A DNA stretch of 64,000 nt from the IMG/VR virus record IMGVR_UViG_3300028888_000001; one strand, 5' to 3'. Positions 464 through 53,082 of the stretch are shown here, piece by piece. Made by a program: the position numbers and the translations under genes. How positions within the stretch are numbered: the stretch's first letter is position 1; each line of letters begins with the position of its first letter. The stretch comes from a virus. Taxonomy: Duplodnaviria > Caudoviricetes. The notes below the pieces were generated by a model. The model was given only the letters and a program-made list of their open reading frames with translations, ran no database searches and was not told where the DNA came from.

Positions 464-947
464 TTTTATATTTGCCTCCTTTAATTATATTAGATTCTTC
501 AATATTATGATCTAAGAATGCTTTATATTCTTCGTATGTAATTTCATTATTACAAAAGTCTAAATACGTAGCCTCATGAGCTATAGTAATACTATCCCAT
601 ATATCCGGGCTCAATAAGTTAGCTTTGATTAATTCATTAAATATATGTACTAGCTTACGGCTATTCTTAAAAGCATCTGGATATATGATAGCCTCATAGT
701 ACCATATTGAGCAAATCTTATATTTCTCTATAAGAAAGTGTACTGGAGAAATATATGTCGGTATGCTATTAGAAAGCTCTGAAAATGAAATACCTTTTAG
801 ATCACATACATAGTCAGCTATAGCACGTTCATGCGACGGCACAGCCTCAATTATGGTTTTATTTGGCAGTATAATGGATTCATTATAACCTATCCAGCTT
901 TTATCACCACCAGCGCCATGAAGTTTGATGAATTCTTGTATTTTCAT
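411..947 (-). CDS. hypothetical protein
   Basis: 178 aa ORF, AAGGAG RBS. Confidence 0.75.
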   Translation of the reverse strand: MKIQEFIKLHGAGGDKSWIGYNESIILPNKTIIEAVPSHERAIADYVCDLKGISFSELSNSIPTYISPVHFLIEKYKICSIWYYEAIIYPDAFKNSRKLVHIFNELIKANLLSPDIWDSITIAHEATYLDFCNNEITYEEYKAFLDHNIEESNIIKGGKYKNERRKYYIGTRARARNA

Positions 948-1010
948 TTTGTCTCCTTTAGAATAGTTATCGTTTTATAGATGCAATTATATTATATATA
1001 ATCATTAAAT

Positions 1011-1042
1011 AAATTGCTAGAGGGATATCCCTCTAGCAATTT
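1011..1042. terminator. perfect 32-bp palindrome, probable terminator
   Basis: AAATTGCTAGAGGGAT/ATCCCTCTAGCAATTT just after the stop of 1052..6562(-). Confidence 0.75.
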
Positions 1043-1051
1043 AAATTATAG

Positions 1052-4000
1052 TTAGATTAAATAGATGCCTTGATCAAGAAGCTCTTTGATCTTCTTATCA
1101 CTAAGGCCATTATTAGAACTAGTTACATTATCTATAAGCTCAACGCCGATATCCTTCTCTGCGTTATTTATAGCTTCATTAATAATATCTGTTCTATTTA
1201 CATTATTATTGGTTTCAGCCATATTATCATCTTCCCCTTCAGAAGTAGTTGTTTTAGGCATTGGTATATTAAGACTTAGAGATTTTCTCTTTGGAATAAT
1301 AGCGCTAGAAATAGCATTATTTTCAGTATAGTTAATAACACTAGTTGAAGTTTTATTATCTACATTGAAATTGACCTTGGAGAGATCTCCGATTTTAATA
1401 TGGATATCAAATCCATAAGTCTCGAATAGTCTAGTGAAGAATCCGTTGGTTTTCCACATAACAAATGTAGTCGTATATCCATATTCATTTTTATATGGAA
1501 ATTCTCCCATGAATTCCATATGCATTTCTTTAATCTCTTTAAGGAGTTTAGTTTCTTTTATAAAATGGCCATTAGTATACACAGGAGTTGTCTTATCATC
1601 TCTACAATTACTTAGAATTTCTTCAGATTGTAGATCTGGGAATGAAAATTCTGCATATAACGGCACATGATTCTCATATAATAATTCTTTGGCGCACGCA
1701 AATACGAAATATTTATTATTTCCAATAATATAATCATTGAGTTGTATGTCTGCGGTTCTGATTAGATGCTTATCAAGATGATGCATAAGCTGGTGTAGAT
1801 CAGATTGATCATAATATTCACGTATGCGATTCATCTCACGTTTAAGCATTGTATCATCAACCACATGCCATGTATCAAATGGTTCTTTACTATATAACTC
1901 AGGATTATCTATAGTATGATTGACTAGCTGATAGGTCAAAGATCTCCATTTAGTTTTATCTTCTTCATTTTCAGCATCATCCAATACTGCAATGAAATTA
2001 TCACTATATACGTTTACAATATTTATATTGGTAGAATCTATAGCTCTATGATAGATTATTTGGCCAAATATATCATGGAAAATACGTCCTGAAGAAGTAT
2101 CCCCTTCAAATTTAGGAATTGTAACAGCAAAGATTTCTTCTCCATTATATACATCTATATATGGTAGATAATCTATAATTTTACGACCTTGGGAGTCGTA
2201 TAATTCCTCAGCATCTAGAGTTAAATATTGTCGTACTAAAGTTTGTGGATCTATCAATACAATATCATAGATAACTTTACCGGTATCATCTACTCTAGCG
2301 TGTACGCTCTCTATATAATTGCCAAGACGATGAATATTTGCTATATCTAATGGACTTCCAGATATAACATTACTTTCGTCATACCATATATTTCTAATGA
2401 TATTGTTTTGATCTATAATCTGAGCTTGATATGTAATCTCTCCAGATTCTTTATATTGATCTATAGAGCTTTTTATAGTATACCCATCTTTAGGTACTAT
2501 GGCAACTATCTCGTTAAGATAAACAAGATTATGCTTTATATTGTAATATTGTAAACTATCTTCGTCTATGGTGCCCCAGTATACACCATTAACGAAATCA
2601 AGCTTAGTGTCTTCTACAAGAATTCTAAATCCTGTATCAGCAACAAATCTAAAGTTTCTAGGCTCTTCTATAGTTTCTATCCATTCATATTCTCTATCTT
2701 CAAGAGGTATCTCAACTCCGTTAATAGATTGTGATATAAGATCTAATTCTTGATTTATACGCTGAGAATAATCCCAATAGAATTTAAACGATTCTGCTAC
2801 AGAGCCCTTTTCAAATAAAAGATTTCTAGGTTCAGTATAAAAATATAATAATGACGTAATATTCTTTTCTATATTTATAACTGGGGTGGCATCCAAAGCT
2901 GGAAGAATAAGAGTTCCAGTGTCTTTATCTTCTTCGTATAACTCATCTGTCTCATAATCATATATGAAAGTCTGATCTTGATAGTTGTAGCCAGAAGTAA
3001 CCCAGAAATCTCTAACTATTTCATTTAATATAGCAATATGAGCTACATTAGCCCATACTTTATCTTCTTCTGTGTCTGTCATTTTGGCATAATAACCAAA
3101 TACATTATCTAATTCTTCATACCCAATTGCAGAGTGGGTTCTAATAAAATTAACTAAAGAATCATATTTAGATATTTTATTCTCGTCCCTAAGATTATCA
3201 GAAACCTGTTTTATGTTTCCTACATTTATTGGTGTTACAGCTGGGTATTTTAATGTATTTATGTCTGTAGTAAATCTGACAGTATGTGAATCTATGTCAG
3301 CTATATCATTGTAAGGAATCTTCTTTCCGTTTACAAAGAATAAATATAAGTCTTTAGAAAGTGGAACATCTAGATCTGTTTTAAGATAATCTAAATAACC
3401 ACTAGGTTTAACTTCACATCTAGGTTTATTATCTATATTAATATCCGTCATTTCATATGGCACATAGAATAGCTCTACCCTATCATTAGCATCAACAAAC
3501 CGTGCTGTATATAAGTATAAACCATAGAACGGTCTAGTGTGTTTAGGAATAGTAACAAGATAAGAGTCTTGTTTCATCCTACGACCATTGATAAATAGAA
3601 TGTATTGTCTTTGATTATCGCAATATCTAAATCTCTTGTCTAGAGCTATACGATAAGATTTTTTATCTACATAAAGCCGTTGATATACAAACTTATATTT
3701 AGACGTTGCTACAAAAGTATTCTCAAGCTGTTCTGTTGTATAGATTGCAGATAAATCTTCTCCAGTGAGCACATCTATTACATTAATATCATCTGTGGTT
3801 AACGTTATAGGCATATCAGTTCCACCTATTTGAATATCATGATATGTAGTGGAGTAATCTGACATATCTAGAGCATTTAATGGTTCATATCCATCTGTGA
3901 TGTGATAGATAGCACTATTCTTGATAGCTAACGTATTATCTGTTTCATGACTAGAAATATTAAATGCTATATTTTCAGATGCTTCAGGAATTAAAGTTGG

Positions 4001-27744: not shown

Positions 27745-28968
27745 TACCTGAGAGTTACAGTAGCCGCATCATTGTGGTGACACAGTGTTGAATAATTCTT
27801 TCTAATTGCTGGGAAGTGCTAAAGCCTTCTTGCCTATAGGGAGCTGAAAAGCAGAAATAAGTAGAAGGATGATCTATGGTGAAATAAAAGCTAATATACT
27901 TTACTGAACTTTTGTATATTGGTCCTAAGGATCGTTAACAATGTACAATCAGCAGCTAAGTAAAATTTTATAATATTTATTTCATGAGGAGTATAATACA
28001 TGCCAACTAATTGGGTAGGCTATACATTCATGAATATAGAAAATCAACCAGTTACAGTAATAGAAGATTTAGGCTATTCAAGTGCTTCTGGAGAGCATAA
28101 AGTTATAGTCAGATTTGATATTACTGGAAATACTAAAGAAGTATTTGTAAACAACGTAAGAACTGGCAAAGTTAAAGATCCAATGCGCGGTATTAGGCTA
28201 TTTGAATGGCGCCATAGCAATGGATTTGGAGATTTCATGATCATTGAAGATATGGGGATGATACAACAGAATAATCGTCCGATACATATGGTTAAATGCC
28301 AATGGAAGGATACTGGTTCTGTGTCTATATATCGATTTGATCATGCAGTAGAAGGAAGCATTAAAGATTGGTATAAACCGATACTATTTGGCATAGCTTA
28401 TCATGGAGAAGTGGATTGTTTTGAAGAGCCGTGGGCTTATCAAGAATGGAAACATATGCTTCAACGATGCTATGATAAAAATGATACTCATTATTCATCA
28501 TATGGTGGTAAGAACGTTTATGTTGATAATAGATGGTTAAACTATGCTAATTTTGTGAAAGATATAAAGTATTTAGAAAATTATGATAAGAAATTAGCAT
28601 TTCCATCTGAGTTTGAAATTGACAAAGATTTCTTGCAACGTCATGTTCCAGATAATGTACCTAAGGTTTATTCTCCAGAAACTTGTATGTTTATACACAG
28701 AAGTTTAAATAACTATCTTAGGTATAATAGCTCGTCGACACCAATCGATAGACAATATTTAGTACCAATGATTAATTTAGTATAAAAAATAAATATTATA
28801 AAATTTTAAAAGTTCAACGACTATCTCAAAAGAGAGTAGAGCTCAAGCGAGCTCAAAATGGAGAACGCTCCTATAATATAGGGCGGTGATATAGTCTCGG
28901 CTTCTAGGCAACACCTAGAGAAGTTCATAAGAGAACTGCATAGCGTAGCGAACTATGTGAAGGCATCG
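27745..28968 (+). mobile_element. group I intron 2 of gyrB (with HNH-type ORF)
   Basis: P1 CGGT/GCCG; conserved P,Q,R,S; terminal G; splicing restores DADADG-KHI. Confidence 0.92.
28000..28785 (+). CDS. intron-encoded HNH-type homing endonuclease
   Basis: W..MLQRCY, YGG, IDKD, YSPETCMF..N; lies between Q and R (P6 loop), flanked by an inverted repeat. Confidence 0.8.
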   Translation: MPTNWVGYTFMNIENQPVTVIEDLGYSSASGEHKVIVRFDITGNTKEVFVNNVRTGKVKDPMRGIRLFEWRHSNGFGDFMIIEDMGMIQQNNRPIHMVKCQWKDTGSVSIYRFDHAVEGSIKDWYKPILFGIAYHGEVDCFEEPWAYQEWKHMLQRCYDKNDTHYSSYGGKNVYVDNRWLNYANFVKDIKYLENYDKKLAFPSEFEIDKDFLQRHVPDNVPKVYSPETCMFIHRSLNNYLRYNSSSTPIDRQYLVPMINLV

Positions 28969-29034
28969 AAGCACATTCAAAGTCTGTTGCTAATCATGTT
29001 TTTAAAATATCTACCGTTCGTCGTAGAGCAAGGT
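28969..29034 (+). CDS. gyrB: gyrB exon 3 (66 nt, missed by the ORF track)
   Basis: KHIQSLLLIMFLKYLPFVVEQG matches the GyrB HIRTLLL..F...P.....G segment. Confidence 0.92.
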
Positions 29035-29400
29035 TAATTAAAATAGCCTATTCATTATGGTAACATAGTGTCTATTACTCTTTTTAATTGCTGGGAAACG
29101 CTAAGAGCCTCTATGCCTATAAGGAGCGAAAGCAGAAACAAGTTAGAGGATGATCTATGCTGAAATAAAAGCCAATTTAATTGGTGCTAAGGATCGTTAA
29201 CAATGTATAATCAGCATCCAAGCTATACATTAGTATAGAAGGTTCAACGACTATCTCAAAAGAGAGTAGGGCTCAAGCGAGTTCAAAATGGAAGAGCATC
29301 CTATGTAGTATAGGATGAAGATATAGTCTCGACTTCTAGGTAGCACCTAGAGAAGTTCATAAGAGAACTGCATAGCATAGCGAACTATGTGAAGATTTCG
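29035..29400 (+). mobile_element. group I intron 3 of gyrB (ORF-less)
   Basis: P1 AGGT/GCCT; P,Q,R,S present; terminal G; restores EQG-KLFIANPPLY. Confidence 0.92.
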
Positions 29401-29955
29401 AAATTATTTATTGCTAATCCGCCCTTATATGGGCTTAAAATTGGTAAGGATAAATATAAATTCTTTGCCGATAATATAGACTATGTAGATTATGTGAGAA
29501 ATATTTTCTGTAAAGATAATGTCATAGCAAATGATAAGAAAAAAGTATTAAGCAAATCTGAGATTGTAAAAATACTATATAGCAATATTGATTATCTTAA
29601 ATACATGCGTCACGTTTCTGGTATATTTGCTATAGACATAGAATTTCTAGAGTTTTTGCTATACAATAAAGATCTTGCATATAATAAATTTAAAACGACC
29701 GTAGAGAAAGTATATCCATTCGTTAAGGTTACTAAAGAGAATGGCATTACTATGCTTCATGGGTTGGTTGGATCTTTATATCAAACAGTTTTCTTTAACG
29801 ATAGATTGCTGTTTGAGTGTAAACCTATTATAGACTTGATTGAAAGATCTTGTAAATATTATTACATAAACGGAAAACGAACTACATTATATGGCTTAAT
29901 GAACGCATTTAATCAATGTGAGCCTTCAGGAATTAGTAGATATAAAGGACTGGGT
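29401..29955 (+). CDS. gyrB: gyrB exon 4
   Basis: KLFIANPPLY...SRYKGLG. Confidence 0.92.
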
Positions 29956-30373
29956 AAATTTTGCCCATTCATCGTGGTAACACGGTGTCTAAATCTCTTT
30001 TGAATTGCTGGGAAGTGCTAAAGCTCTCATGCCTATAAGGAATCGAAAGATAGAAACAAGTTGAGAGATAGTCTATGGTGAAATAAAAGCTAATACTTTA
30101 GGCAGAAGTATTAGTCCTAAGGATTGCTAGCAATGTACAATCAGCATCCAAGCTATACATTAGTATAGAAGGTTCAACGACTATCCCCTATATGGTGCGT
30201 GAAAATCGTATACAGGAGTACGGCTCAAGCGAGTGGGTGAGAATCCCTTAAATGGAAGTGGAAGAGCAACCTTTACTATCAAAAGGTTGATGATATAGTC
30301 TCGACTTCTAGGTGACACTTAGAGAAGTTCATAAGAGAACTACATAGCGTAGCGAACTATGTGAAGATAATCG
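29956..30373 (+). mobile_element. group I intron 4 of gyrB (ORF-less)
   Basis: P1 TGGGT/GCCCA; P,Q,R,S present; terminal G; restores RYKGLG-EM. Confidence 0.92.
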
Positions 30374-30547
30374 GAAATGCCGCCTAAGTTATTAGGAGAA
30401 TCTACTATATTACCTGGGATTGGAAGGACGCTAAAGCAATATAATATAGAAGACGTAAAGAAAGAACTTAAATATATTACATCTCTTCAATCTGATAAAG
30501 GTGCTTTTATCCAAGGTATAAAAGTTAGAAGAGAAGACATAGTATAA
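30374..30547 (+). CDS. gyrB: gyrB exon 5 (missed by the ORF track)
   Basis: EMPPKLLGESTILP...REDIV*; spliced product 770 aa. Confidence 0.9.
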   Translation, partial: EMPPKLLGESTILPGIGRTLKQYNIEDVKKELKYITSLQSDKGAFIQGIKVRREDIV

Positions 30548-30559
30548 TATAACAAAAAA

Positions 30560-30587
30560 TGCCAGTAGGGATTTCTCCCTACTGGCA
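30560..30587. terminator. bidirectional terminator
   Basis: TGCCAGTAGGGA-tttc-TCCCTACTGGCA between convergent genes. Confidence 0.75.
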
Positions 30588-30604
30588 CTTACCGATTTTA
30601 TTTT

Positions 30605-31120
30605 TTATTCACTGGTATCATTGCCATGTATATCTTGAGTGCCCTGTTTATCGATATCATAATCTATAATTAACCCATCAGTAGAAGCACTAGAGTTATT
30701 TTCTAGAGTTTGAACTTTAGATTGTAGAGTGGTCACAGATTCTTTTAGAGTAGTATTCTCTTCAATTAAATTAGCAACTTGCTGTTGAAGAGTTTGAATT
30801 AAGCCTTTAAGTTCTGTATCATCATACTCTTCTACAGGCTGAGATTGATTATTTTCTAAAGTTTGTACTTTAGATTCTAGAGTAGAAATACTTGCTTTAA
30901 TTTCTGTATCATCATATGCAGTTATAGTACCATCAGCACCACTACCAAGCTTATTACCATTAGCATCTACAATCTCGGTAATTTTATGAGTATGGTGCAG
31001 CATGTCTGCCCATTCTTCGGCAGTAATTTTCTTAATAATACCAGCAGCACTAGGATAATTAGTTGTGTTGTCCATATTAATTTCAGGGAATTTATACGAA
31101 TAAAATCCTCCAGATGCCAT
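30605..31120 (-). CDS. coiled-coil protein (possible virion fibre component)
   Basis: Repeated YDDTE.K and SKVQTLENN; late-type promoter at 31153..31166. Confidence 0.65.
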   Translation of the reverse strand: MASGGFYSYKFPEINMDNTTNYPSAAGIIKKITAEEWADMLHHTHKITEIVDANGNKLGSGADGTITAYDDTEIKASISTLESKVQTLENNQSQPVEEYDDTELKGLIQTLQQQVANLIEENTTLKESVTTLQSKVQTLENNSSASTDGLIIDYDIDKQGTQDIHGNDTSE

Positions 31121-31270
31121 TTTTTATTTTCCTCCATATTTCGTTTTAGTGTATTATTAAAATGTAAAAAAATACCATGTGTTTGTACATATAAGTACTG
31201 CGTTATAAAATAATGGCGCAAGCGCGATATTAATTAATTATAATCTTTTTAATCAATGGAGGAATACCAA

Positions 31271-31720
31271 ATGTCTAGGAATTTTCAGCCAAACCGTAAC
31301 AATTCTAAAAAGCAGCCAGTTAAACCCCAGAATCTTAAACTTGCCCTGGCTTTGCCTGAAGGGACTTCAGAGTCTGTAGTTAATGAGATTCTTGACGTGC
31401 TTGCAAACATGAGATTTGACAAGATCTCTGTGCCAGTTGGAACTTATCGTGCTCTGCTTGATCCGTCTGTTGCTGCAGATGATACCCGTGTTCTCACAGT
31501 TGGCTATATTAAGAGCTATGATCCTGAAAAGGAAGAGTTTTCAGTGGTAATCTACTCAGCTAACCGTGATGCTATTTATGCATTTAAAGATCCGGGTCTT
31601 GAGATTGTATTCAATCAGTACAATGATTCTCTTGGTATCATTACCAAGTTTAATGTCATTCCCCTTAGTGCTGATAATACAGAAGAATCTGCTACCGTGG
31701 AAACAGAGCCTGTAGAATAA
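31271..31720 (+). CDS. hypothetical protein
   Basis: ATG 31271 after GGAGG. Confidence 0.75.
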   Translation: MSRNFQPNRNNSKKQPVKPQNLKLALALPEGTSESVVNEILDVLANMRFDKISVPVGTYRALLDPSVAADDTRVLTVGYIKSYDPEKEEFSVVIYSANRDAIYAFKDPGLEIVFNQYNDSLGIITKFNVIPLSADNTEESATVETEPVE

Positions 31721-31905: not shown

Positions 31906-34260
31906 ATGAAAGATAATATAATTCCAGTAGATGTACGAAAACAATATATGTCAGATATGGCACGATATTCGCTTTATGTGCTATTTGATCGTTATATTTG
32001 TGATATTAGAGACGGACTAAAACCAGTACAAAGAAGAATCTTATATTGTATGTGGGAGGATGTTAAAGCAGTTTCCGAAGCCACAAAAAGAAAATCTGCA
32101 AACACTACAGGTATGGTTATCGGTGCTTATCATCCACATAGTGCAGATGCTGTATATGGAGCTATGCAAGTAATGACTAACCACTGGGAAACAAAAGTTC
32201 CATTACTTGTTTATGCATCATCATCTGGATCTATACAGGGTGGTCCTCAAGCTGCAAGTAGATATACAGAATCATATTTATCTCAGTTTGCATTAGATGT
32301 AATTTTTGGAGATCTTATAGAGAGTCGAATGTCAGTAGACTGGGCTAAGACATTTGATAATCATACTACAGAGCCAGAGTTCTTACCAGTGAAAGTACCG
32401 CTGCTTTTAGTGAATGGTTGCTTTTCAGTTGTTATTGGTAGAAAAATTGAGGTGCCAAAGCATAGCTTAAATGACGTTATAGACGCTACATTAGCAGTAC
32501 TTCGAGATCCAAAAGCTAAAGTTATACTGATTCCTGATCCATGCCAAAAGTGCGAAGTGATTGACACTGATTGGAAGAAAATTTCTAATATGGGATTTGG
32601 ATATTATACTCAGAGAGGTATAATAAAAATCACTCAAGATGATAGAGGTATTTATATAGTACATCTATTATCAATGCCAGATTTAATTACCGCAAACTCT
32701 GTAGTTGATAAAATCCAATCTCTCATTAAAGAAAATAAATTACCACAAATTGCAGATATACAGGATCATTCATCTGCAGACGAATTGGATATATGGTTAG
32801 TCTTAAAGAAAGGCTCAGATCCAGAGTATGTAAAACAAGTTCTTTATAAGCAGACAAGTATCCAAGACACAAAACGAGTAAATATGGAGGTCATCGATGA
32901 AAATGAAATAAAGAGAGTTAGCTATAAAGCATATATAGCCTATTTTATTGAAAATAGAAAGATGGTAAAATTTAGAATATATAATGCTAGGCTACAGAAA
33001 GTAGAAACTCGCTTACATACTATAGAGACCTTTATTGCTATACTCGAAAGTGGTGATGTAGAAAAAATTATTCACGCTATAAGAAATCAAAAGCCGTCAG
33101 AGGAAGCTCAGCTTATAGATTGGCTTATGAAACGTTTGAAAATCACAGATCTTCAAGCTAAGTTTGTACTTAATACAGAGATCAAGAAACTCTCTAAAGG
33201 AAGCTTGAATAAATATAAAGAAGAGAGAAAAAATCTATTAGCTTTGAGAGAGCAATATATAAAGATGATTACGATCCCAGAGCTTATAAATAAAGAAATT
33301 GAAGATGAGCTTCTAGCCATCAAAGCTAAATATGGCAAACCTAGAAAGTCTATCGTAATTTCAGAAGCAGAGGCTTCAAATATTCCTCAGGGCACATTCA
33401 AGATAGTTGTTTATGAATCTGGTTATCTAAAGAAAATGGAAATTCAAGCACCTATCAAATCTTATAAAGGTGACAATCCAAAATGTATCACTGTAGGTGA
33501 TAACGATAAAGATCTACTGTTATTTGACGAAATGGGTAAAGTATTTAGATTACCAATACATAAAATCCCATTTACAGATAAAAATTCTCCGGGCGTAGAT
33601 ATTAGAATGATATTAAAGAAGCTTACAAGTAATATAACTTCAATTATATATCATCCAATACTAGAAACTCTTGCTAATAAGAAGTCTAAATACTTTATTA
33701 TCTCTATAACAAGATCTGGGCTTATAAAGAGAATGGACTTAGATGATATATTAAACGCTACTCCATCTGGTATTGTATATTCTAAGCTTAATAAAGATGA
33801 TTTTGTTAAAGACATCGTGGTTGCTAATATAAAATCAGATATTGTAATATATACGAAATCTAAAGCTCTTAGAATACCAATAGAAAATATACCTTACTTA
33901 AAGAGGTCTACTCTAGGCGCAGCATCTATGCGTGGGAATGATCCTATAGAGGGTATTAGCGTCATAACCTCAGATACTAAAGACGTTGTTATAGTAACCA
34001 CCAAAGGCAGATTTAATAGAATAATCCAATCTGCGCTTGAGCGTTCTCAACGTGGTAAAGGTGGATCTAGAGTAATTAAATTAGCTAAAGGTGATAATAT
34101 AATCAATGTGTTTACTTGTAGCCACGATACGTTAATTAGATGCGTACATATGGATGGTACAGTAACAGAAATTCAATCTTCTGCAGTAGCATTAGGATCA
34201 TCAGTATCTCAAGGGGAAAAACTTACTAAAGAAATAATTAAAGCAGAAGTCATATCATAA
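31906..34260 (+). CDS. gyrA: DNA gyrase/topo II subunit A
   Basis: DGLKPVQRRILY, YHPH, AASRYTE catalytic Tyr, C-terminal pinwheel repeats. Confidence 0.95.
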   Translation: MKDNIIPVDVRKQYMSDMARYSLYVLFDRYICDIRDGLKPVQRRILYCMWEDVKAVSEATKRKSANTTGMVIGAYHPHSADAVYGAMQVMTNHWETKVPLLVYASSSGSIQGGPQAASRYTESYLSQFALDVIFGDLIESRMSVDWAKTFDNHTTEPEFLPVKVPLLLVNGCFSVVIGRKIEVPKHSLNDVIDATLAVLRDPKAKVILIPDPCQKCEVIDTDWKKISNMGFGYYTQRGIIKITQDDRGIYIVHLLSMPDLITANSVVDKIQSLIKENKLPQIADIQDHSSADELDIWLVLKKGSDPEYVKQVLYKQTSIQDTKRVNMEVIDENEIKRVSYKAYIAYFIENRKMVKFRIYNARLQKVETRLHTIETFIAILESGDVEKIIHAIRNQKPSEEAQLIDWLMKRLKITDLQAKFVLNTEIKKLSKGSLNKYKEERKNLLALREQYIKMITIPELINKEIEDELLAIKAKYGKPRKSIVISEAEASNIPQGTFKIVVYESGYLKKMEIQAPIKSYKGDNPKCITVGDNDKDLLLFDEMGKVFRLPIHKIPFTDKNSPGVDIRMILKKLTSNITSIIYHPILETLANKKSKYFIISITRSGLIKRMDLDDILNATPSGIVYSKLNKDDFVKDIVVANIKSDIVIYTKSKALRIPIENIPYLKRSTLGAASMRGNDPIEGISVITSDTKDVVIVTTKGRFNRIIQSALERSQRGKGGSRVIKLAKGDNIINVFTCSHDTLIRCVHMDGTVTEIQSSAVALGSSVSQGEKLTKEIIKAEVIS

Positions 34261-48693: not shown

Positions 48694-48924
48694 ATTTTAT
48701 CACGTTAGAAATGCCATTATTAAGAGGGATTTCATTATTCATTCAGCTGCAGTAAGATATTGTTCATGAATACCTCCTTTCTAATATTATTAGTCTCTCA
48801 TTAATAATGGCTTTCTATATATTAAATTTTTTGTCGATTATATATTATAAATTTGAATGTAAAAATAACAAGCATGATATTATAAAATTTTACATTCAAA
48901 TTTATTTATAAGGGAGTGATAAAA

Positions 48925-50020
48925 ATGGCTTTTAATCTAGAGAATCAGATTCAAAATAATATTAAAGATTTACCGGATTACAACTATATGCTAGGTAGAA
49001 CTTTAATGCAGCCTTTTAAGCCTAGTAACTCTGGATCACGAGCATTGATGTCAGCTATACATGTTGAGCATTTAATGGTTCCATCAAAACCGGAAACCCC
49101 ATTAGTTCAAACCGGATATGAAACTGAATTTGGCGAGATGTCTACTAGTTATATCGAAGCTAGTGGTAATTGGGAAGTAATTTATAAAATAAACAAATTT
49201 TCATTTAACAACAATCATTATTATCTCATAGTAAGAAATCTAGAGACTGGTATATATGATGTGATTGAGAGAGTCACGTATAAACATAATACAGAGTCTT
49301 ATGGATATATGTGGGATAACAGTCGTATTGATGCGTTGAATATCGGAGACGTTATTAAAGATAAATCCATCATTAAAACTTCTAAAGGCTTTGACGAATT
49401 TGGAAATAAAATGAATGGAGTTAATCTATTAACGTTATATTTAAGCTGTGGACAGAATATGGAAGACTCGATCATTATATCTGAATCTGCAGCGAAAAAA
49501 CTTGAGACTAATCTGATAGAGAATACGTCGATCACCATAAATGATAATGATATACTATTAAATCTGTATGGTGATTATAATACGTATAAAACATTTCCTG
49601 ACATTGGGCAGAAAATAAACAACGGCATATTCTGTGCAATAAGAAGATTAGAGAATGAAAACTTATTATTCTCTCTATCTCAGCAGAGATTGAGAGATAT
49701 AATGATTTCAGATAGAAAAATTATAATGGATGGATATGTAGCAGACATCGATGTCTATTGTAACAATGTAGAAGCTCTTGGAGATTCTACTTATAATAAG
49801 CAGCTTTATAAATATTATCAAGAAAGAATTAATTTCTGTAGACAAGTATATGATCTTGTTGGCCCAATAGCATTAAATAACCAGATGACTTATGATCTAC
49901 AAGAGTTATTTGGAATTGCTAGAGATACCATTACAGGAAAGCAGTTTTTTAAAGAACGACAGTTTAACAATGTCATCATGGAAGTTACAGTAATGCATCC
50001 ACTGCCAATAATGGACGGAG
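48925..50020 (+). CDS. multisubunit RNA polymerase beta subunit C-half, exon 1
   Basis: QPF...SRALMS, GQNMEDSIIISES; ends just before the conserved GDK motif. Confidence 0.9.
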
Positions 50021-50516
50021 AAACTATATAGTTATCTCAGCGCATTTAGTAATAAGTGCGTTCCTACGGGGTTAATTGCAGGTAATTGGTAAAGCCTCGC
50101 ACCAAAGCGGAATCTGAAAAGATAGACGTAAAGGGACGAAAGTAGAAAAAACGCGAGGATGGTATATGGTTAAATGAAAAGTAAAGTGTATAGTCGGTAA
50201 TATACTTTACCCCTAAGTACTATTTAAAAATCCATGTTCTTGCAGCGAAACACCTAAAAGATTTTATCTCATGGTGGACGTTCAACGACTATCCGATGGC
50301 ATCGGAGTAAAGCCGCAAGCTAAAGGCGGAAGAAAAATCCCGGCCCTATTCTTATAGGGATGATAAATAGTCTATGCACGTTTCGAAAGAAAGTGACTTG
50401 GAATTGACCAAGCAATATATGTTGCGAATATATTGAAATCTGGCTCCCGTTTTAAATAAATACAATTTTCTCAACACCTCGGTAAATCTTAACTCGGAAA
50501 GGTGGTGAGAAATATC

Positions 50517-51722
50517 ATGAGTAATTCTACTTATATAAAAGGGTTTAAATATCGAATTTATCCAAATGATTGTCAAAAAGAAATTATAAATAAATTTGTG
50601 GATATGTATAGATTTGTTTATAATTGGGGTCTAGCTCTTGAAGAAGAGACATATCAAAAGTTCTTAAATGGAGAATCGGAGAAACGATTTTTATATTTCT
50701 TTGATCTATGCGCCGAATTTAAAAAGTTCAAATCTATAGAAGAAAATTCTTGGGTTTGTGAGCTTCCAAATACAACTGCGCGTTTAGCATTAAGAGATGT
50801 AATATATTCATTTCAAAAATTCTTTAAAAAGATAAATAGGTACCCAAAATTTAAATCTAAAAAGCGAAGTGTAAAAACTTTTAAAACTAGATCGGATAGA
50901 TTTTCATTTAATGATGATGGGAAGCTAAGATTTGAAGGCCTTCCTAAAGCATTTGTTGATGCTGCTTCCGATAGAGTTGATTTGCACTTCGATTGTGGAT
51001 TTAGAGATGAAAAATTTATACAGCCTTCTATTTCTATTGATAATCTTGGACGATATTGGGTTTCATTTTCTGTGGAAACTGAATGTGAAGTTCTTGACAC
51101 TCCAAAAACAGAACCAATAGGTATCGACTTAGGAGTTAAGACTACAATAACACTTTCTATAGGAGAGAAATTTAATAAACCCAAAGAAAAGTTAGAAAAA
51201 ATACAGCGTCAAATTAAGAAAGCCAATAGACGCGTTTCTCGTGATATTAATCGAAGATTTGCCGAATCAAGACGTACGAAAACCAAGTACGAAGATATAC
51301 CCAAAAGTAACCGCGCTATTAAGCGACAAGAAAAACTTTCTAAGTTATGTAAAAGACGGTATAATATCAAACGCAATTTCTATCATGAAACTGCTAAAAA
51401 GATAGTATTAAGGAATCCTGAAGGCATTGTGATGGAGACTATTCCAGTTCTTGAAACTATGAGAAAATATAAGAAAACAGCGAAATTTTTAGCTGACGCT
51501 GATTTCTATTTAATTACTCAAATTTTCAAAGAAAAATGCACGAAGTATTCTGTTCCGTTTATGCAAGCTGATAGATCATTTCCTTCATCGCAAATTTGTT
51601 CTAATTGCGGGTCAACTAGAAAAATTGGCGGTTATCATACTTATATTTGTCATAAATGTGGTATGAGAATGGATAGAGATATCAATGCTGCTATAAATCT
51701 TAGAAATCTATTCTTCGCTTAA
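50517..51722 (+). CDS. tnpB: TnpB RNA-guided nuclease
   Basis: KGFKYRIYPN HTH, IGIDLG (RuvC-I), IVME (RuvC-II), CSNC/CHKC Zn finger, DRDINAAINL (RuvC-III). Confidence 0.93.
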   Translation: MSNSTYIKGFKYRIYPNDCQKEIINKFVDMYRFVYNWGLALEEETYQKFLNGESEKRFLYFFDLCAEFKKFKSIEENSWVCELPNTTARLALRDVIYSFQKFFKKINRYPKFKSKKRSVKTFKTRSDRFSFNDDGKLRFEGLPKAFVDAASDRVDLHFDCGFRDEKFIQPSISIDNLGRYWVSFSVETECEVLDTPKTEPIGIDLGVKTTITLSIGEKFNKPKEKLEKIQRQIKKANRRVSRDINRRFAESRRTKTKYEDIPKSNRAIKRQEKLSKLCKRRYNIKRNFYHETAKKIVLRNPEGIVMETIPVLETMRKYKKTAKFLADADFYLITQIFKEKCTKYSVPFMQADRSFPSSQICSNCGSTRKIGGYHTYICHKCGMRMDRDINAAINLRNLFFA

Positions 51723-51937
51723 AGCTTTAACGGTTTATACAAATAGCTGGGTAGGTGTTGTATGAACTTTTGTACCGGGCACTGCTCTCGGGAATTTAAG
51801 TTCGTGGAGAATTGTATTTTATATTATAGTATTTACTCGGTATTTCGGAGCCGAGACTCTATTCTCCTTATTGGGAGGATAGGGGTTGCTATAGTATAAA
51901 TTAGTTTGACGAAGCGAAAAGGCGGGAGCCAAAGCAG
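51723..51937 (+). ncRNA. putative omegaRNA scaffold / element right end
   Basis: GAATTTAAGTTCGTGGAG...GACGAAGCGAAAA resembles IS200/605/607 right-end motifs; nested stems such as TTTATATTATAGTA/TGCTATAGTATAAA. Confidence 0.65.
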
Positions 51938-53082
51938 ATAAACTTTCCGATCGGTATGGCGGTAAAGGTGTAGTTTCAAAAATACTTCCAGATAACAAAA
52001 TGCCAATACTTGAAAATGGTGAAGTTGTAGACATTATTAAGAACCAGAGTACGTGTATTAATCGTGAGAATATTGGTCAGCTGCATGAGCAGTCATTGAA
52101 TTTCATTGGTATGAGAATTCTTGACTTCTTTAAAACAAATGTGCTGACATACTCTGAGATGGTTCAGATGTGGTATAAATTCGTTTCTATGGTTGATCAA
52201 CCTCAAGCACAGATGGGCGCTGGGATGATTGACTTCTATGACGAAGAACAATGCAGATTGTTTATAGAGTCTATCTATGACGATGGTGGTATTATATTAT
52301 CATCTCAGCCGTTTACGACTCCTATAAATCTAGATACTATAGCAGAAATCTATAAAGAATTTCCATTCATTAAACCCTATAAGGTAGCTATGCCTATAGA
52401 AGACAGTAATGGTAATATAAGATTTGTAAAGTCCAAAAGAGACTTAGTTGTTGGAAAAATTTATAATTATAGACTCAAACAATATGCAGAGGAGAAATTC
52501 TCTGTAACGTCTTTATCGGCTACCAATCTTAAGAACTTAAATACTCGTTCTAAAGCTAATAAAGCGTATGAAACTAAGTATGCTAAGACACCGATCATGT
52601 TCGGTACCATGGAATCTGGTAACCTGTCTCATCTAGGCATGCAATATGTGGTAATGAATCTCATGCTATATAGTAGTAGCCCTAGAGCTAGAAGACTGTT
52701 TGAAGAGCTATTAATTGGAAATCCATATGATATCAATATAGTATTGGACAAAGACAGCAAAAATAGAAACGCTGAAATCATCAATGCTTTATTGAAAACT
52801 ATGGGTTTGAAATTAGTATTTTCAAAAGAACCAAAAGAAAAGAAAACCATGATGAATAATATTATGTATGAGCTTGTAAGTGCTAAAGACTTTAAACCTA
52901 AAACTAATATTAGACAGATCATGGACTTTTATGATGATGAAATAGAGCTTAAATATGCTGGAGCTCTTCATCATAAAAATAATAAACCAATGTATAATCT
53001 TATAATGATGGAGGATGTCAACAATGACGAACCTCAAACAAATATTAGAGCAATCATTGAAGAATCTGACGGAGAAGAATGA
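51938..53082 (+). CDS. RNA polymerase beta subunit C-half, exon 2
   Basis: KLSDRYGGKGVVS, MP...G..DII.N, RENIGQ, YRLKQ, FGTMES; spliced product 746 aa. Confidence 0.9.

Follow-up and report, generated by a model that had tools for sequence, protein, structure and literature searches.

The 64,000-nucleotide stretch of DNA analysed here (the window) is part of the jumbo-phage genome IMG/VR IMGVR_UViG_3300028888_000001, which is complete at 313,331 bp (terminal repeats; completeness rating, 100%). An RNA polymerase beta-like gene in the window is interrupted at its conserved G-D-K motif by an IStron-like element (positions 50021-51937, + strand) composed of a group I intron of the Twort-like IA2 type, a tnpB gene and an omegaRNA-like region. 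The element is missing from intron-less homologues and is present in a single copy in the genome. We consider it probable, at roughly 70%, that the element is an IStron without the transposase TnpA, whose TnpB would be guided by the adjoining exon to cut intron-less alleles of the polymerase gene and would thereby promote homing of the intron.

Two open reading frames (ORFs) on the + strand, one ending at 50031 and the other running from 52000, are the halves of one RNA polymerase beta-like gene. Exon 1 (48916-50020, +) was assigned by its ORF, its frame and its contiguity with exon 2 in tblastn matches, and exon 2 (51938-53082, +) by its homologues and a match to the Pfam family RNA_pol_Rpb2_6 (E = 1e-11). 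Joining position 50020 to 51938 gives GGA G/AT AAA (slashes mark the exon junction), which is read as ...MDG/DKLSDRYGGKG, and the G that closes exon 1 opens the Asp codon of G-D-K. The exon halves are contiguous in all 46 of the 46 related IMG/VR loci, where precisely one codon separates the two tblastn matches (39-69% amino acid identity). The nearest full-length relative in a collection of 5.8 billion proteins is also uninterrupted (84% identity over exon 2 and 80% at the nucleotide level; 324.7-kb contig). These uninterrupted genes indicate that the 1,917 bases at 50021-51937 are an insertion that has to be removed from the mRNA. The splice sites coincide with the ends of the element, and its removal restores the gene exactly, as judged against the same homologues. 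Thus, the preliminary description of this DNA, in which the intron splits the GDK motif of the beta subunit, is borne out by the junction and by the intron-less alleles that the relatives carry, except that the end given there, 51960, falls inside exon 2, the last intron base being 51937. Megablast of the region gave no matches among GenBank phages.

The ribozyme core (P2 to P9; 50036-50395, +) was identified by its match to the Rfam family Intron_gpI (RF00028; 28.1 bits, E = 1.3e-4, under the gathering score of 50 bits) and by blast identity to phage introns. Over 200-300 nt, it shares 72-77% identity with introns from Twort-like Staphylococcus and Enterococcus phages, and the core of one relative, L069, matches it at 83% identity. 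At E ≤ 0.01, Rfam does not detect the intron cores of L069, of another relative (L071) or of the phage Romulus described below, though blastn shows their homology. The internal guide TTATCTC (50032-50038, +), as read from the sequence, is complementary to GAG/ATAA, that is, to the last three bases of exon 1 (P1) and the first four of exon 2 (P10). In P1, G50020 pairs with C50038, so that the 5' splice site follows a G paired with C instead of the usual U.G pair; the same G-C arrangement is found in relatives. The internal guide covaries with the flanks: GATCTC with GAG/ATC in L069, AACTCGC with GCG/AGTT in L071, AAAATCTC with GAG/ATTT in L115, and ACACGT with GCG/TGT in L122.

Downstream of the core, a long-range inverted-repeat (IR) stem between 50441-50453 and 51919-51931 (+) loops out tnpB and the omegaRNA-like region. 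The stem comprises 13 bp at −23.7 kcal/mol, with a z value of −5.0 against shuffles (duplexfold), in agreement with the 13-bp long-range helix that the preliminary description had proposed. An equivalent stem surrounds the tnpB region in 10 of 10 elements tested, where the sequences are unrelated and the lengths range from 13 to 44 bp (21-44 bp in the relatives). The retention of the stem despite wholly different sequences argues for selection on the splicing fold.

The only plausible ORF of the intron is tnpB (50517-51722, +), which encodes a predicted RNA-guided nuclease of 401 amino acids. The protein matches HTH_OrfB_IS605, OrfB_IS605 and Cas12f1-like_TNB in Pfam and guided_TnpB in NCBIfam (218 bits); among the NCBI models, the IS200/IS605 TnpB model scores 195 bits versus 116 bits for the IS607 model. 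The start codon is probably ATG at 50517, behind AGGTGG at 50500-50505, rather than GTG at 50502. The RuvC motifs GIDLG, METI and DRDINAA and two CxxC pairs (CSNCG and CHKCG) are present and align to solved TnpB structures, and the catalytic residues are D204, E307 and those of the DRD motif at 386-388. The D/E/D triad and both CxxC pairs are invariant in 11 TnpBs of the family that are otherwise 45-67% identical in pairs. Judged by this invariance, TnpB is intact and under constraint. A hairpin at 50467-50519 (+), formed by TTCTCAACACCT paired with AGGTGGTGAGAA, buries the ribosome-binding site of tnpB and overlaps a conserved AACACCTYGGTAA motif. The hairpin and the motif recur 5' of tnpB in most relatives, and in L120 the arms have changed in a compensatory way (CTCTC with GAGAG). 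Such an arrangement resembles the translational control of the intron endonucleases of phage T4.

The absence of TnpA should be noted. Neither Y1_Tnp (PF01797) nor Resolvase (PF00239) has a match at E ≤ 1 in the complete 313,331-bp genome, which holds one tnpB and one copy of the element. In the window, just 47 nt separate the IR stem from the ribosome-binding region of tnpB, and the space between the IR stem and tnpB is 47-130 nt across 11 elements, which is too small for tnpA. No tnpA is found in the element, in its own genome or in any of the 10 relatives. The preliminary description had reported a TnpB with all three RuvC acidic residues as the sole ORF and no TnpA in the element or the window, and it had proposed searching the whole genome for tnpA and further copies; the first observation extends to the family and the second to the complete genome.

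The element belongs to a family. A protein search gave many TnpB relatives with 45-61% identity in ENA and Logan assemblies, whereas an exact-peptide search for tnpB relatives in IMG/VR returned zinc-finger fragments only. The sample analysed here consists of eleven elements, namely that of the window and ten fetched contexts on phage-like metagenome contigs (TnpB, 45-60% identical), plus one distant element (L048 and L049). All ten share the layout of a same-strand exon, a group I core, an IR stem, tnpB, a 3' region of about 200-300 nt and an exon. The target genes were named through intron-less homologues in the genome of the window, and most of them encode RNA polymerase subunits. In addition to the beta site G/DK of the window, the elements interrupt a beta-prime-like subunit at NADYDG/D (L069 and L121), a second RNA polymerase subunit, phrog_3015, at one common site (L071, L115 and L116) or 9 nt upstream of it (L074), and a phrog_2943 'polymerase' at PG/V (L122). 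The targets of L120 and L117 are a virion protein and a 474-amino acid protein of unknown function, respectively, the latter at DG/V as assigned by proxy.

The contigs of L072, L073, L116, L117, L120 and L123 begin 45-540 nt 5' of tnpB, within the element, and the 5' exons of L116, L117, L120 and L123 are therefore missing. Assemblies seem to break at the intron, as they would with a repeated core or with intron-plus and intron-minus variants side by side in the sample. For L074, a 3' splice site after CCGGAG was considered and dropped in favour of GTCAG on the basis of the internal guide and of avoidance of a self-target; both are in frame, and the choice is slightly uncertain. The L074 contig also carries another group I intron (889-1150, minus strand; 36 bits) in a divergent DNA polymerase gene.

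The distribution of the family was examined in cellular genomes and in a TnpB tree. An exact-peptide search of 185,579 species-representative cellular genomes gave no tnpB relatives, and a profile search of the same genomes gave no TnpB above 32% identity among the matches listed. Since no close cellular TnpB appears among these matches, the family looks phage-specific within the limits of the searches. In the tree, L074, L120 and L122, which lie in three different genes, form a clade (support, 97/99), and L069 and L121, both at the beta-prime site, are sisters in 0 of 200 bootstrap trees. TnpB relatedness does not track the insertion site, indicating that the family has switched sites. The beta-prime exon of L069 is 89% identical at the protein level to the corresponding gene in the genome of the window, which has no element there. 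From these sequence comparisons, the family has moved to other sites on several occasions, and its presence varies between close relatives. The preliminary description had regarded near-identical copies at many unrelated sites, with a tnpA in trans, as the mark of an ordinary non-autonomous IStron. Related copies do occur at six or more unrelated phage sites, but they are not near-identical and no tnpA was found.

The position at which the guide scaffold ends determines which sequence would serve as the guide. The omegaRNA-like scaffold (51773-51933, +) was delimited by pair counts in an alignment (A3). SL1 (51775-51791), whose loop CUGC occupies 51782-51785, is part of this scaffold, as is a helix between 51801-51805 and 51914-51918 that encloses SL2 (51836-51855) and SL3 (51857-51884); the 3' strand of the IR stem also lies inside it. 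The last four intron bases, GCAG (51934-51937, +), which end in omega-G, are assigned as the 3' strand of a pseudoknot by their covariation with the SL1 loop. In the family, the SL1 loop CUGNN pairs with the terminal NNCAG of the intron, and the last 4-6 intron bases are involved. GCAG pairs with CUGC in the window, UCAG with CUGA in L074 and L122, CUCAG with CUGAG in L117, AACAG with CUGUU in L115, and CACCAG with CUGGUG in L120, giving 5-6 bp in several elements. Position −4 is paired in 11 of 11 elements (A-U in four, C-G in three, U.G in two, and U-A and G-C in one each). Beyond the invariant CAG, 27 contiguous pairs are observed versus 8.6 when the ends are shuffled among the elements, and none of 50,000 shuffles is as high. 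The eight elements with an independently fixed splice site give 18 pairs versus 7.0 (P = 3e-4). SL1 and the helix between UUCRU and RYGAA, which encloses the two further stem-loops, have 96.5% of their cells paired versus 87% in shuffles (0 of 500 as high) and a covariation score of 0.383 versus 0.201 in the same alignment; shifted partners lower the pairing to 49% or less.

The covariation of the terminal bases with the SL1 loop supports a scaffold that ends at the 3' splice site, as had been suggested for the right end of the element in the preliminary description, and hence a guide provided by exon 2. The predicted guide, ATAAACTTTCCGATCGGTAT, is the first 20 nt of exon 2 (51938-51957, +), placed by this scaffold end and by analogy with characterised TnpB omegaRNAs, and it occurs once in the genome. 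A pseudoknot between the nexus loop and the last bases of the scaffold is reported for TnpB omegaRNAs, including those of IStrons (bioRxiv 10.1101/2023.11.20.567912; PMC13521648). Strong conservation in the 3' region ends with GAAGCGAAAA, 17-76 nt 5' of the splice site. A local hairpin was considered for the linker from GCGAAAA to the splice site, but most of this linker serves as the IR stem's 3' strand, and local pairing is an alternative. No Rfam family matches the omegaRNA-like region at E ≤ 1. An exact 15-mer of the conserved motif of the 3' untranslated region had 40 matches across IMG/VR, none of them beside tnpB, and all were dismissed as chance.

The bases in front of the element look like a target-adjacent motif (TAM). 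Exon 1 ends in ACGGAG/AT in the window, ATGGAG/AT in L069 and L121, GGGCG/AG in L071, CCGGAG/AT in L115, TTGGCG/AC in L074 and CAGGCG/TG in L122. These directly observed ends represent five independent insertion sites, all following GGMG (M, A or C), and a sixth is available by proxy, since the intron-less allele of the L117 site in the genome of the window reads ATGGCG/. P1 needs three of these bases, which covary with the internal guide, so that the G at −4 and the invariant G at −3 and −1 exceed the requirement of the ribozyme. The putative TAM in the window is GGAG at 50017-50020 (+), and the proposal that the end of exon 1 is the TAM gains from its recurrence at the five sites.

The position −3 should also be noted. 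All introns of the family end in NCAG (TCAG, GCAG, ACAG or CCAG), so that intron ends always carry C at −3 and flanks always G; in the window, this is the sole difference in the last four bases (GGAG versus GCAG). In CboIStron, an IS607-family IStron of Clostridium, the measured TAM is TGGG and the element end is TCGG, and no position is read more strictly than −3 (bioRxiv 10.1101/2023.11.20.567912). The C at −3 would protect the intron-bearing allele from self-cleavage. This difference agrees with the earlier proposal that the TAM and the target are joined in intron-less alleles only. In 33 distinct intron-less beta alleles from IMG/VR, the corresponding bases are GGAG (16 alleles), GGTG (14), GGGG (2) and GGCG (1), and about half of them would thus present the motif. 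Outside the window, at C1:69640-69690, the beta-prime-like gene of the same genome (NADYDGD) has no intron where L069 and L121 carry theirs, and it keeps GGAG. Relative to the putative guide of L069, it has mismatches at positions 2, 11, 14 and 17, that at position 2 being a synonymous GAT-to-GAC change; it could be an escape allele or the result of plain drift.

Taken together, the features suggest the following course of events. Splicing would restore the polymerase mRNA, with TTATCTC forming P1 and P10 and the 13-bp stem bringing the 3' splice site to the core. In transcripts that stay unspliced, the 3' 165 nt would instead fold as an omegaRNA, the scaffold of which stops precisely at the splice site and leaves the first 16-20 nt or so of exon 2 as the guide. 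TnpB with this omegaRNA would cut DNA in which GGMG directly precedes the guide sequence, a combination found only in the intron-less allele, and the intron-bearing allele, with GCAG in place of GGAG, would be spared. In a mixed infection, a break repaired from the intron-bearing genome would copy the element in, and a break left unrepaired would disable the polymerase gene of the competitor.

Several observations weigh against homing of a TnpA-less IStron by TnpB. A perfect combination of TAM and target was sought in the 33 IMG/VR alleles and the 5.8-billion-protein collection, and none was found; the best IMG/VR allele has two mismatches in 16 nt of the target, and the nearest relative overall (80% nucleotide identity) has GGTG and several seed mismatches. 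The Rfam score of the intron core is under the gathering threshold, and for L117, L120 and L123 the 3' splice site is a guess from CAG and the reading frame, although that of L117 was later backed by the homologue in the genome of the window. The linker of 17-76 nt between the covarying helix and the pseudoknot strand is a further point, as CboIStron is described with a terminal stem-loop there; the two were set side by side by description, not base by base. Finally, homing alone cannot explain the presence of a TnpA-less element at new sites. A transposase acting in trans could have brought it there, as could reverse splicing through the internal guide, which is short, or off-target cuts that were then repaired.

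The first of these routes leads to a different account, in which the element is an ordinary non-autonomous IStron mobilised by TnpA supplied in trans by the host or another element, and TnpB acts restoratively after excision with no homing between phages. The occurrence of the family at six or more unrelated sites with repeated switching, for which homing alone is insufficient, fits such an account, as do the GG-containing target, which resembles the preferences of IS607, and the spread of many TnpA-defective bacterial IStrons (PMC4227781). Nevertheless, the complete 313-kb genome has neither a Y1 nor a serine transposase, the 11 elements leave no room for one, only one copy is present, and no obvious cellular source family exists, judging from the absence of any TnpB above 32% identity among the matches listed from 185,579 genomes. 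We regard this account as unlikely on its own, while noting that it and homing by TnpB are not mutually exclusive. It would also be possible for the intron to be inherited vertically as a decaying or repurposed passenger, its TnpB no longer cutting DNA and either tuning the splicing of the polymerase mRNA or doing nothing. Nuclease-dead TnpB relatives that work as regulators are known, and the lack of a perfect natural target in the alleles and proteins searched would be accounted for. TnpB binding also represses splicing in CboIStron (bioRxiv 10.1101/2023.11.20.567912). However, the RuvC triad and the zinc-finger cysteines are invariant over 11 otherwise divergent proteins, a TAM-like motif and the difference at −3 between self and non-self would be purposeless for pure RNA binding, and the switching of sites argues against purely vertical descent; a passenger of this kind is improbable.

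The boundary of the scaffold bears on a further model, in which an insertion sequence is nested in the intron. The scaffold would then end at GCGAAAA (51914-51920), the guide would be the intron tail GGCGGGAGCCAAAGCAG, and homing would be into TnpB-less introns. This model draws on GAAGCGAAAA being the last strongly conserved block, which pairs with the upstream UUCGU with covariation, and on the free variation of the next 17-76 nt among relatives. On the other hand, the terminal 4-6 bases past the linker covary with the SL1 loop, indicating that the structured RNA reaches the splice site. The bases 5' of the inner boundary (TTTT, ATAT, AGAA, AAAT, AGTT and ATAA) contain no motif, whereas the exon-1 ends have GGMG. 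In addition, GGCGGGAGCCAAAGCAG has no second copy in the genome, and a TnpB-less version of the intron is found at none of the sites. The nested model was rejected on the terminal pseudoknot and the missing inner TAM, and we give it hardly any weight. A TnpA-less IStron with exon 2 as its guide remains the preferred interpretation.

The element was compared with known IStrons, whose definition comes from Clostridioides and Bacillus and which a 2014 survey covered (PMC4227781). Group A IStrons have a TTGAT target, splicing after U, a TCAG end and a short balanced IR stem, and group B IStrons have a GG-ending target (AGGG, TGGG or GAGG), splicing after G, a CGG end, a long AU-rich IR stem and a 3' direct repeat (PMC4227781). 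Many bacterial IStrons have no intact TnpA and yet have spread, and IStrons of the Clostridium botulinum phages c-st and D-1873 are already listed (PMC4227781). The preliminary description had placed IStrons in Firmicute chromosomes, which stands as far as it goes but omits these two phages. The element in the window shows a group I core, exact ends, a TnpB, an IR stem and an omegaRNA-like scaffold reaching the 3' splice site. It has no TnpA or remnant, but since published IStrons are often without intact TnpA, its membership is still allowed.

The traits of the two groups are mixed in this element, as far as its sequence can be compared. Like CdISt1 of Clostridioides difficile (group A), it has an IA2 intron and an IS605-type TnpB; TnpA is often degenerate in that group, and its TCAG end is to be compared with GCAG in the window and TCAG, GCAG, ACAG or CCAG in the relatives. 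Group A elements, however, insert after T-rich pentanucleotides (TTGAT) and splice after U, whereas the element in the window follows GGMG (exon 1 ends in ACGGAG) and is spliced after G; a short, balanced IR stem is seen in group A but a long, AU-rich one in most relatives of the window element. With group B (including CbISt3 and CbISt4 of phages c-st and D-1873), it shares splicing after G, GG in the target, occurrence in phages and a long IR stem around the ORF, together with a 3' direct repeat able to form a local hairpin. Group B elements differ in ending in CGG with GG at −2 and −1, as opposed to CAG with GG at −4 and −3, and in having IS607 TnpA or remnants; c-st itself is a plasmid-like prophage of a Firmicute.

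CboIStron and CseIStron have the same order of parts as the element in the window, with an IA2 intron in the 5' part and tnpB and the omegaRNA in the 3' part. Further common features are a scaffold that reaches to the 3' splice site, a pseudoknot with the last few bases as its 3' strand, competition between a terminal stem and an intron pairing, a final G in exon 1, and a difference at −3 (G versus C) between the TAM and the element end. Their TnpB, an RNA-guided homing nuclease, cuts the vacant site and competes with splicing for the same RNA (bioRxiv 10.1101/2023.11.20.567912; PMC13521648), and the same activity would be expected of the TnpB in the window. There are differences. CboIStron carries the serine recombinase TnpA or its traces, and the element in the window has none. 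The TAM and end of CboIStron are TGGG and TCGG, as against GGMG and NCAG. TnpB of the window shares about 32% identity with its counterparts in phage c-st and is closer to the IS200/IS605 model than to the IS607 model. CboIStron resides in a bacterial plasmid or chromosome, and the element described here in a virulent-type jumbo phage genome.

Homing-endonuclease group I introns of phages carry protein-only enzymes (HNH, GIY-YIG or LAGLIDADG), in place of which the intron in the window carries TnpB; like them, it occupies a conserved position in an essential gene that is intron-less in relatives. The HNH intron of PhiPA3 gp210, which lies in a virion RNA polymerase gene of a jumbo phage, is also of group I and interrupts the subunit at conserved aspartates, and L069 and L121 sit at the equivalent motif, ADYDG/D. 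By cutting the intron-less allele in a related phage, its nuclease harms that competitor and gives a competitive edge (PMC11620839). The gp210 enzyme is a protein-only HNH nickase of fixed specificity, whereas TnpB of the window is a RuvC nuclease whose predicted target is set by the flanking exon. A 2026 review considers that TnpA-less IStrons could spread by intron homing (PMC13565253). Thus, the concept is already published, as are IStrons, TnpB-driven homing and the IStrons of phage c-st. What is new here is a lineage without TnpA, with no close cellular relatives among the matches listed and with a GGMG/NCAG signature that fits neither IStron group.

Other introns and related elements were met in the window and in other phages. 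In IMG/VR phages of about 248 kb (L048 and L049, 4682-6667), a different IStron lies in the RFG/EME motif of the same RNA polymerase beta gene. It has the flank CGGTG, the end TACGG and an SL1 loop, CCGUA, complementary to that end; its core is related and its TnpB is 29% identical. With its ACGG end, this IStron fits group B better than the element in the window does. The portal gene of Romulus (L059; JX846613.1, 8301-11928) is split. As in the window, the portal insertion of Romulus and Remus (Silviavirus) contains, in this order, a related group I core (73% identity over 113 nt), tnpB, whose product bears the annotation 'IS605 OrfB transposase', and an SL1-like stem-loop; the loop of the latter, CAUGA, could base-pair with UCAUG at the end of the element. 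The insertion resides in an essential gene of a lytic phage. It differs in that its TnpB is about 30% identical, its flank and end motif is CATG(G) rather than GGMG and NCAG, and its splice sites are putative. From these features, the insertion looks like an IStron in a cultured lytic phage. In Twort (L060, 3654-3732), a RAGATH-18 RNA (67.6 bits) directly follows the TnpB-like ORF021 and is probably the guide-RNA scaffold of this TnpB. In the window, two group I introns above the Rfam gathering score lie at 29026-29352 and 29945-30324, just 5' of the gyrase A gene (31906-34260); Rfam gives 10 matches in the whole genome at E ≤ 1, two of them above gathering. Pfam detects no HNH domain in the ORFs around 28000-31700, and the earlier remark on HNH genes in gyrB introns could not be confirmed.

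A broader proposal, which we put forward tentatively and consider possible rather than probable, is that jumbo phages use TnpA-less IStrons as reprogrammable RNA-guided weapons and gene drives, with TnpB, guided by the adjoining exon, cutting the RNA polymerase genes of related co-infecting phages at catalytic motifs. The elements would take the place of protein homing endonucleases and re-target GGNG sites without a transposase, for instance by reverse splicing through the internal guide or when off-target cuts are repaired. The main interpretation, homing of the intron by TnpB, makes definite predictions, namely a GGMG TAM, a self-protecting C at −3 and a scaffold of about 165 nt, and the portal element of Romulus and Remus, which is possibly related, could permit a homing experiment in cultured Staphylococcus phages. 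If TnpB does drive this intron, the element would represent natural RNA-guided intron homing in lytic phages, with the specificity of the nuclease rewritten by whichever exon adjoins the element. Such homing would also account for the presence of one element family in the active-site motifs of several RNA polymerase subunits, and would join the biology of bacterial IStrons and TnpB with that of intron-encoded nucleases as weapons between competing jumbo phages.

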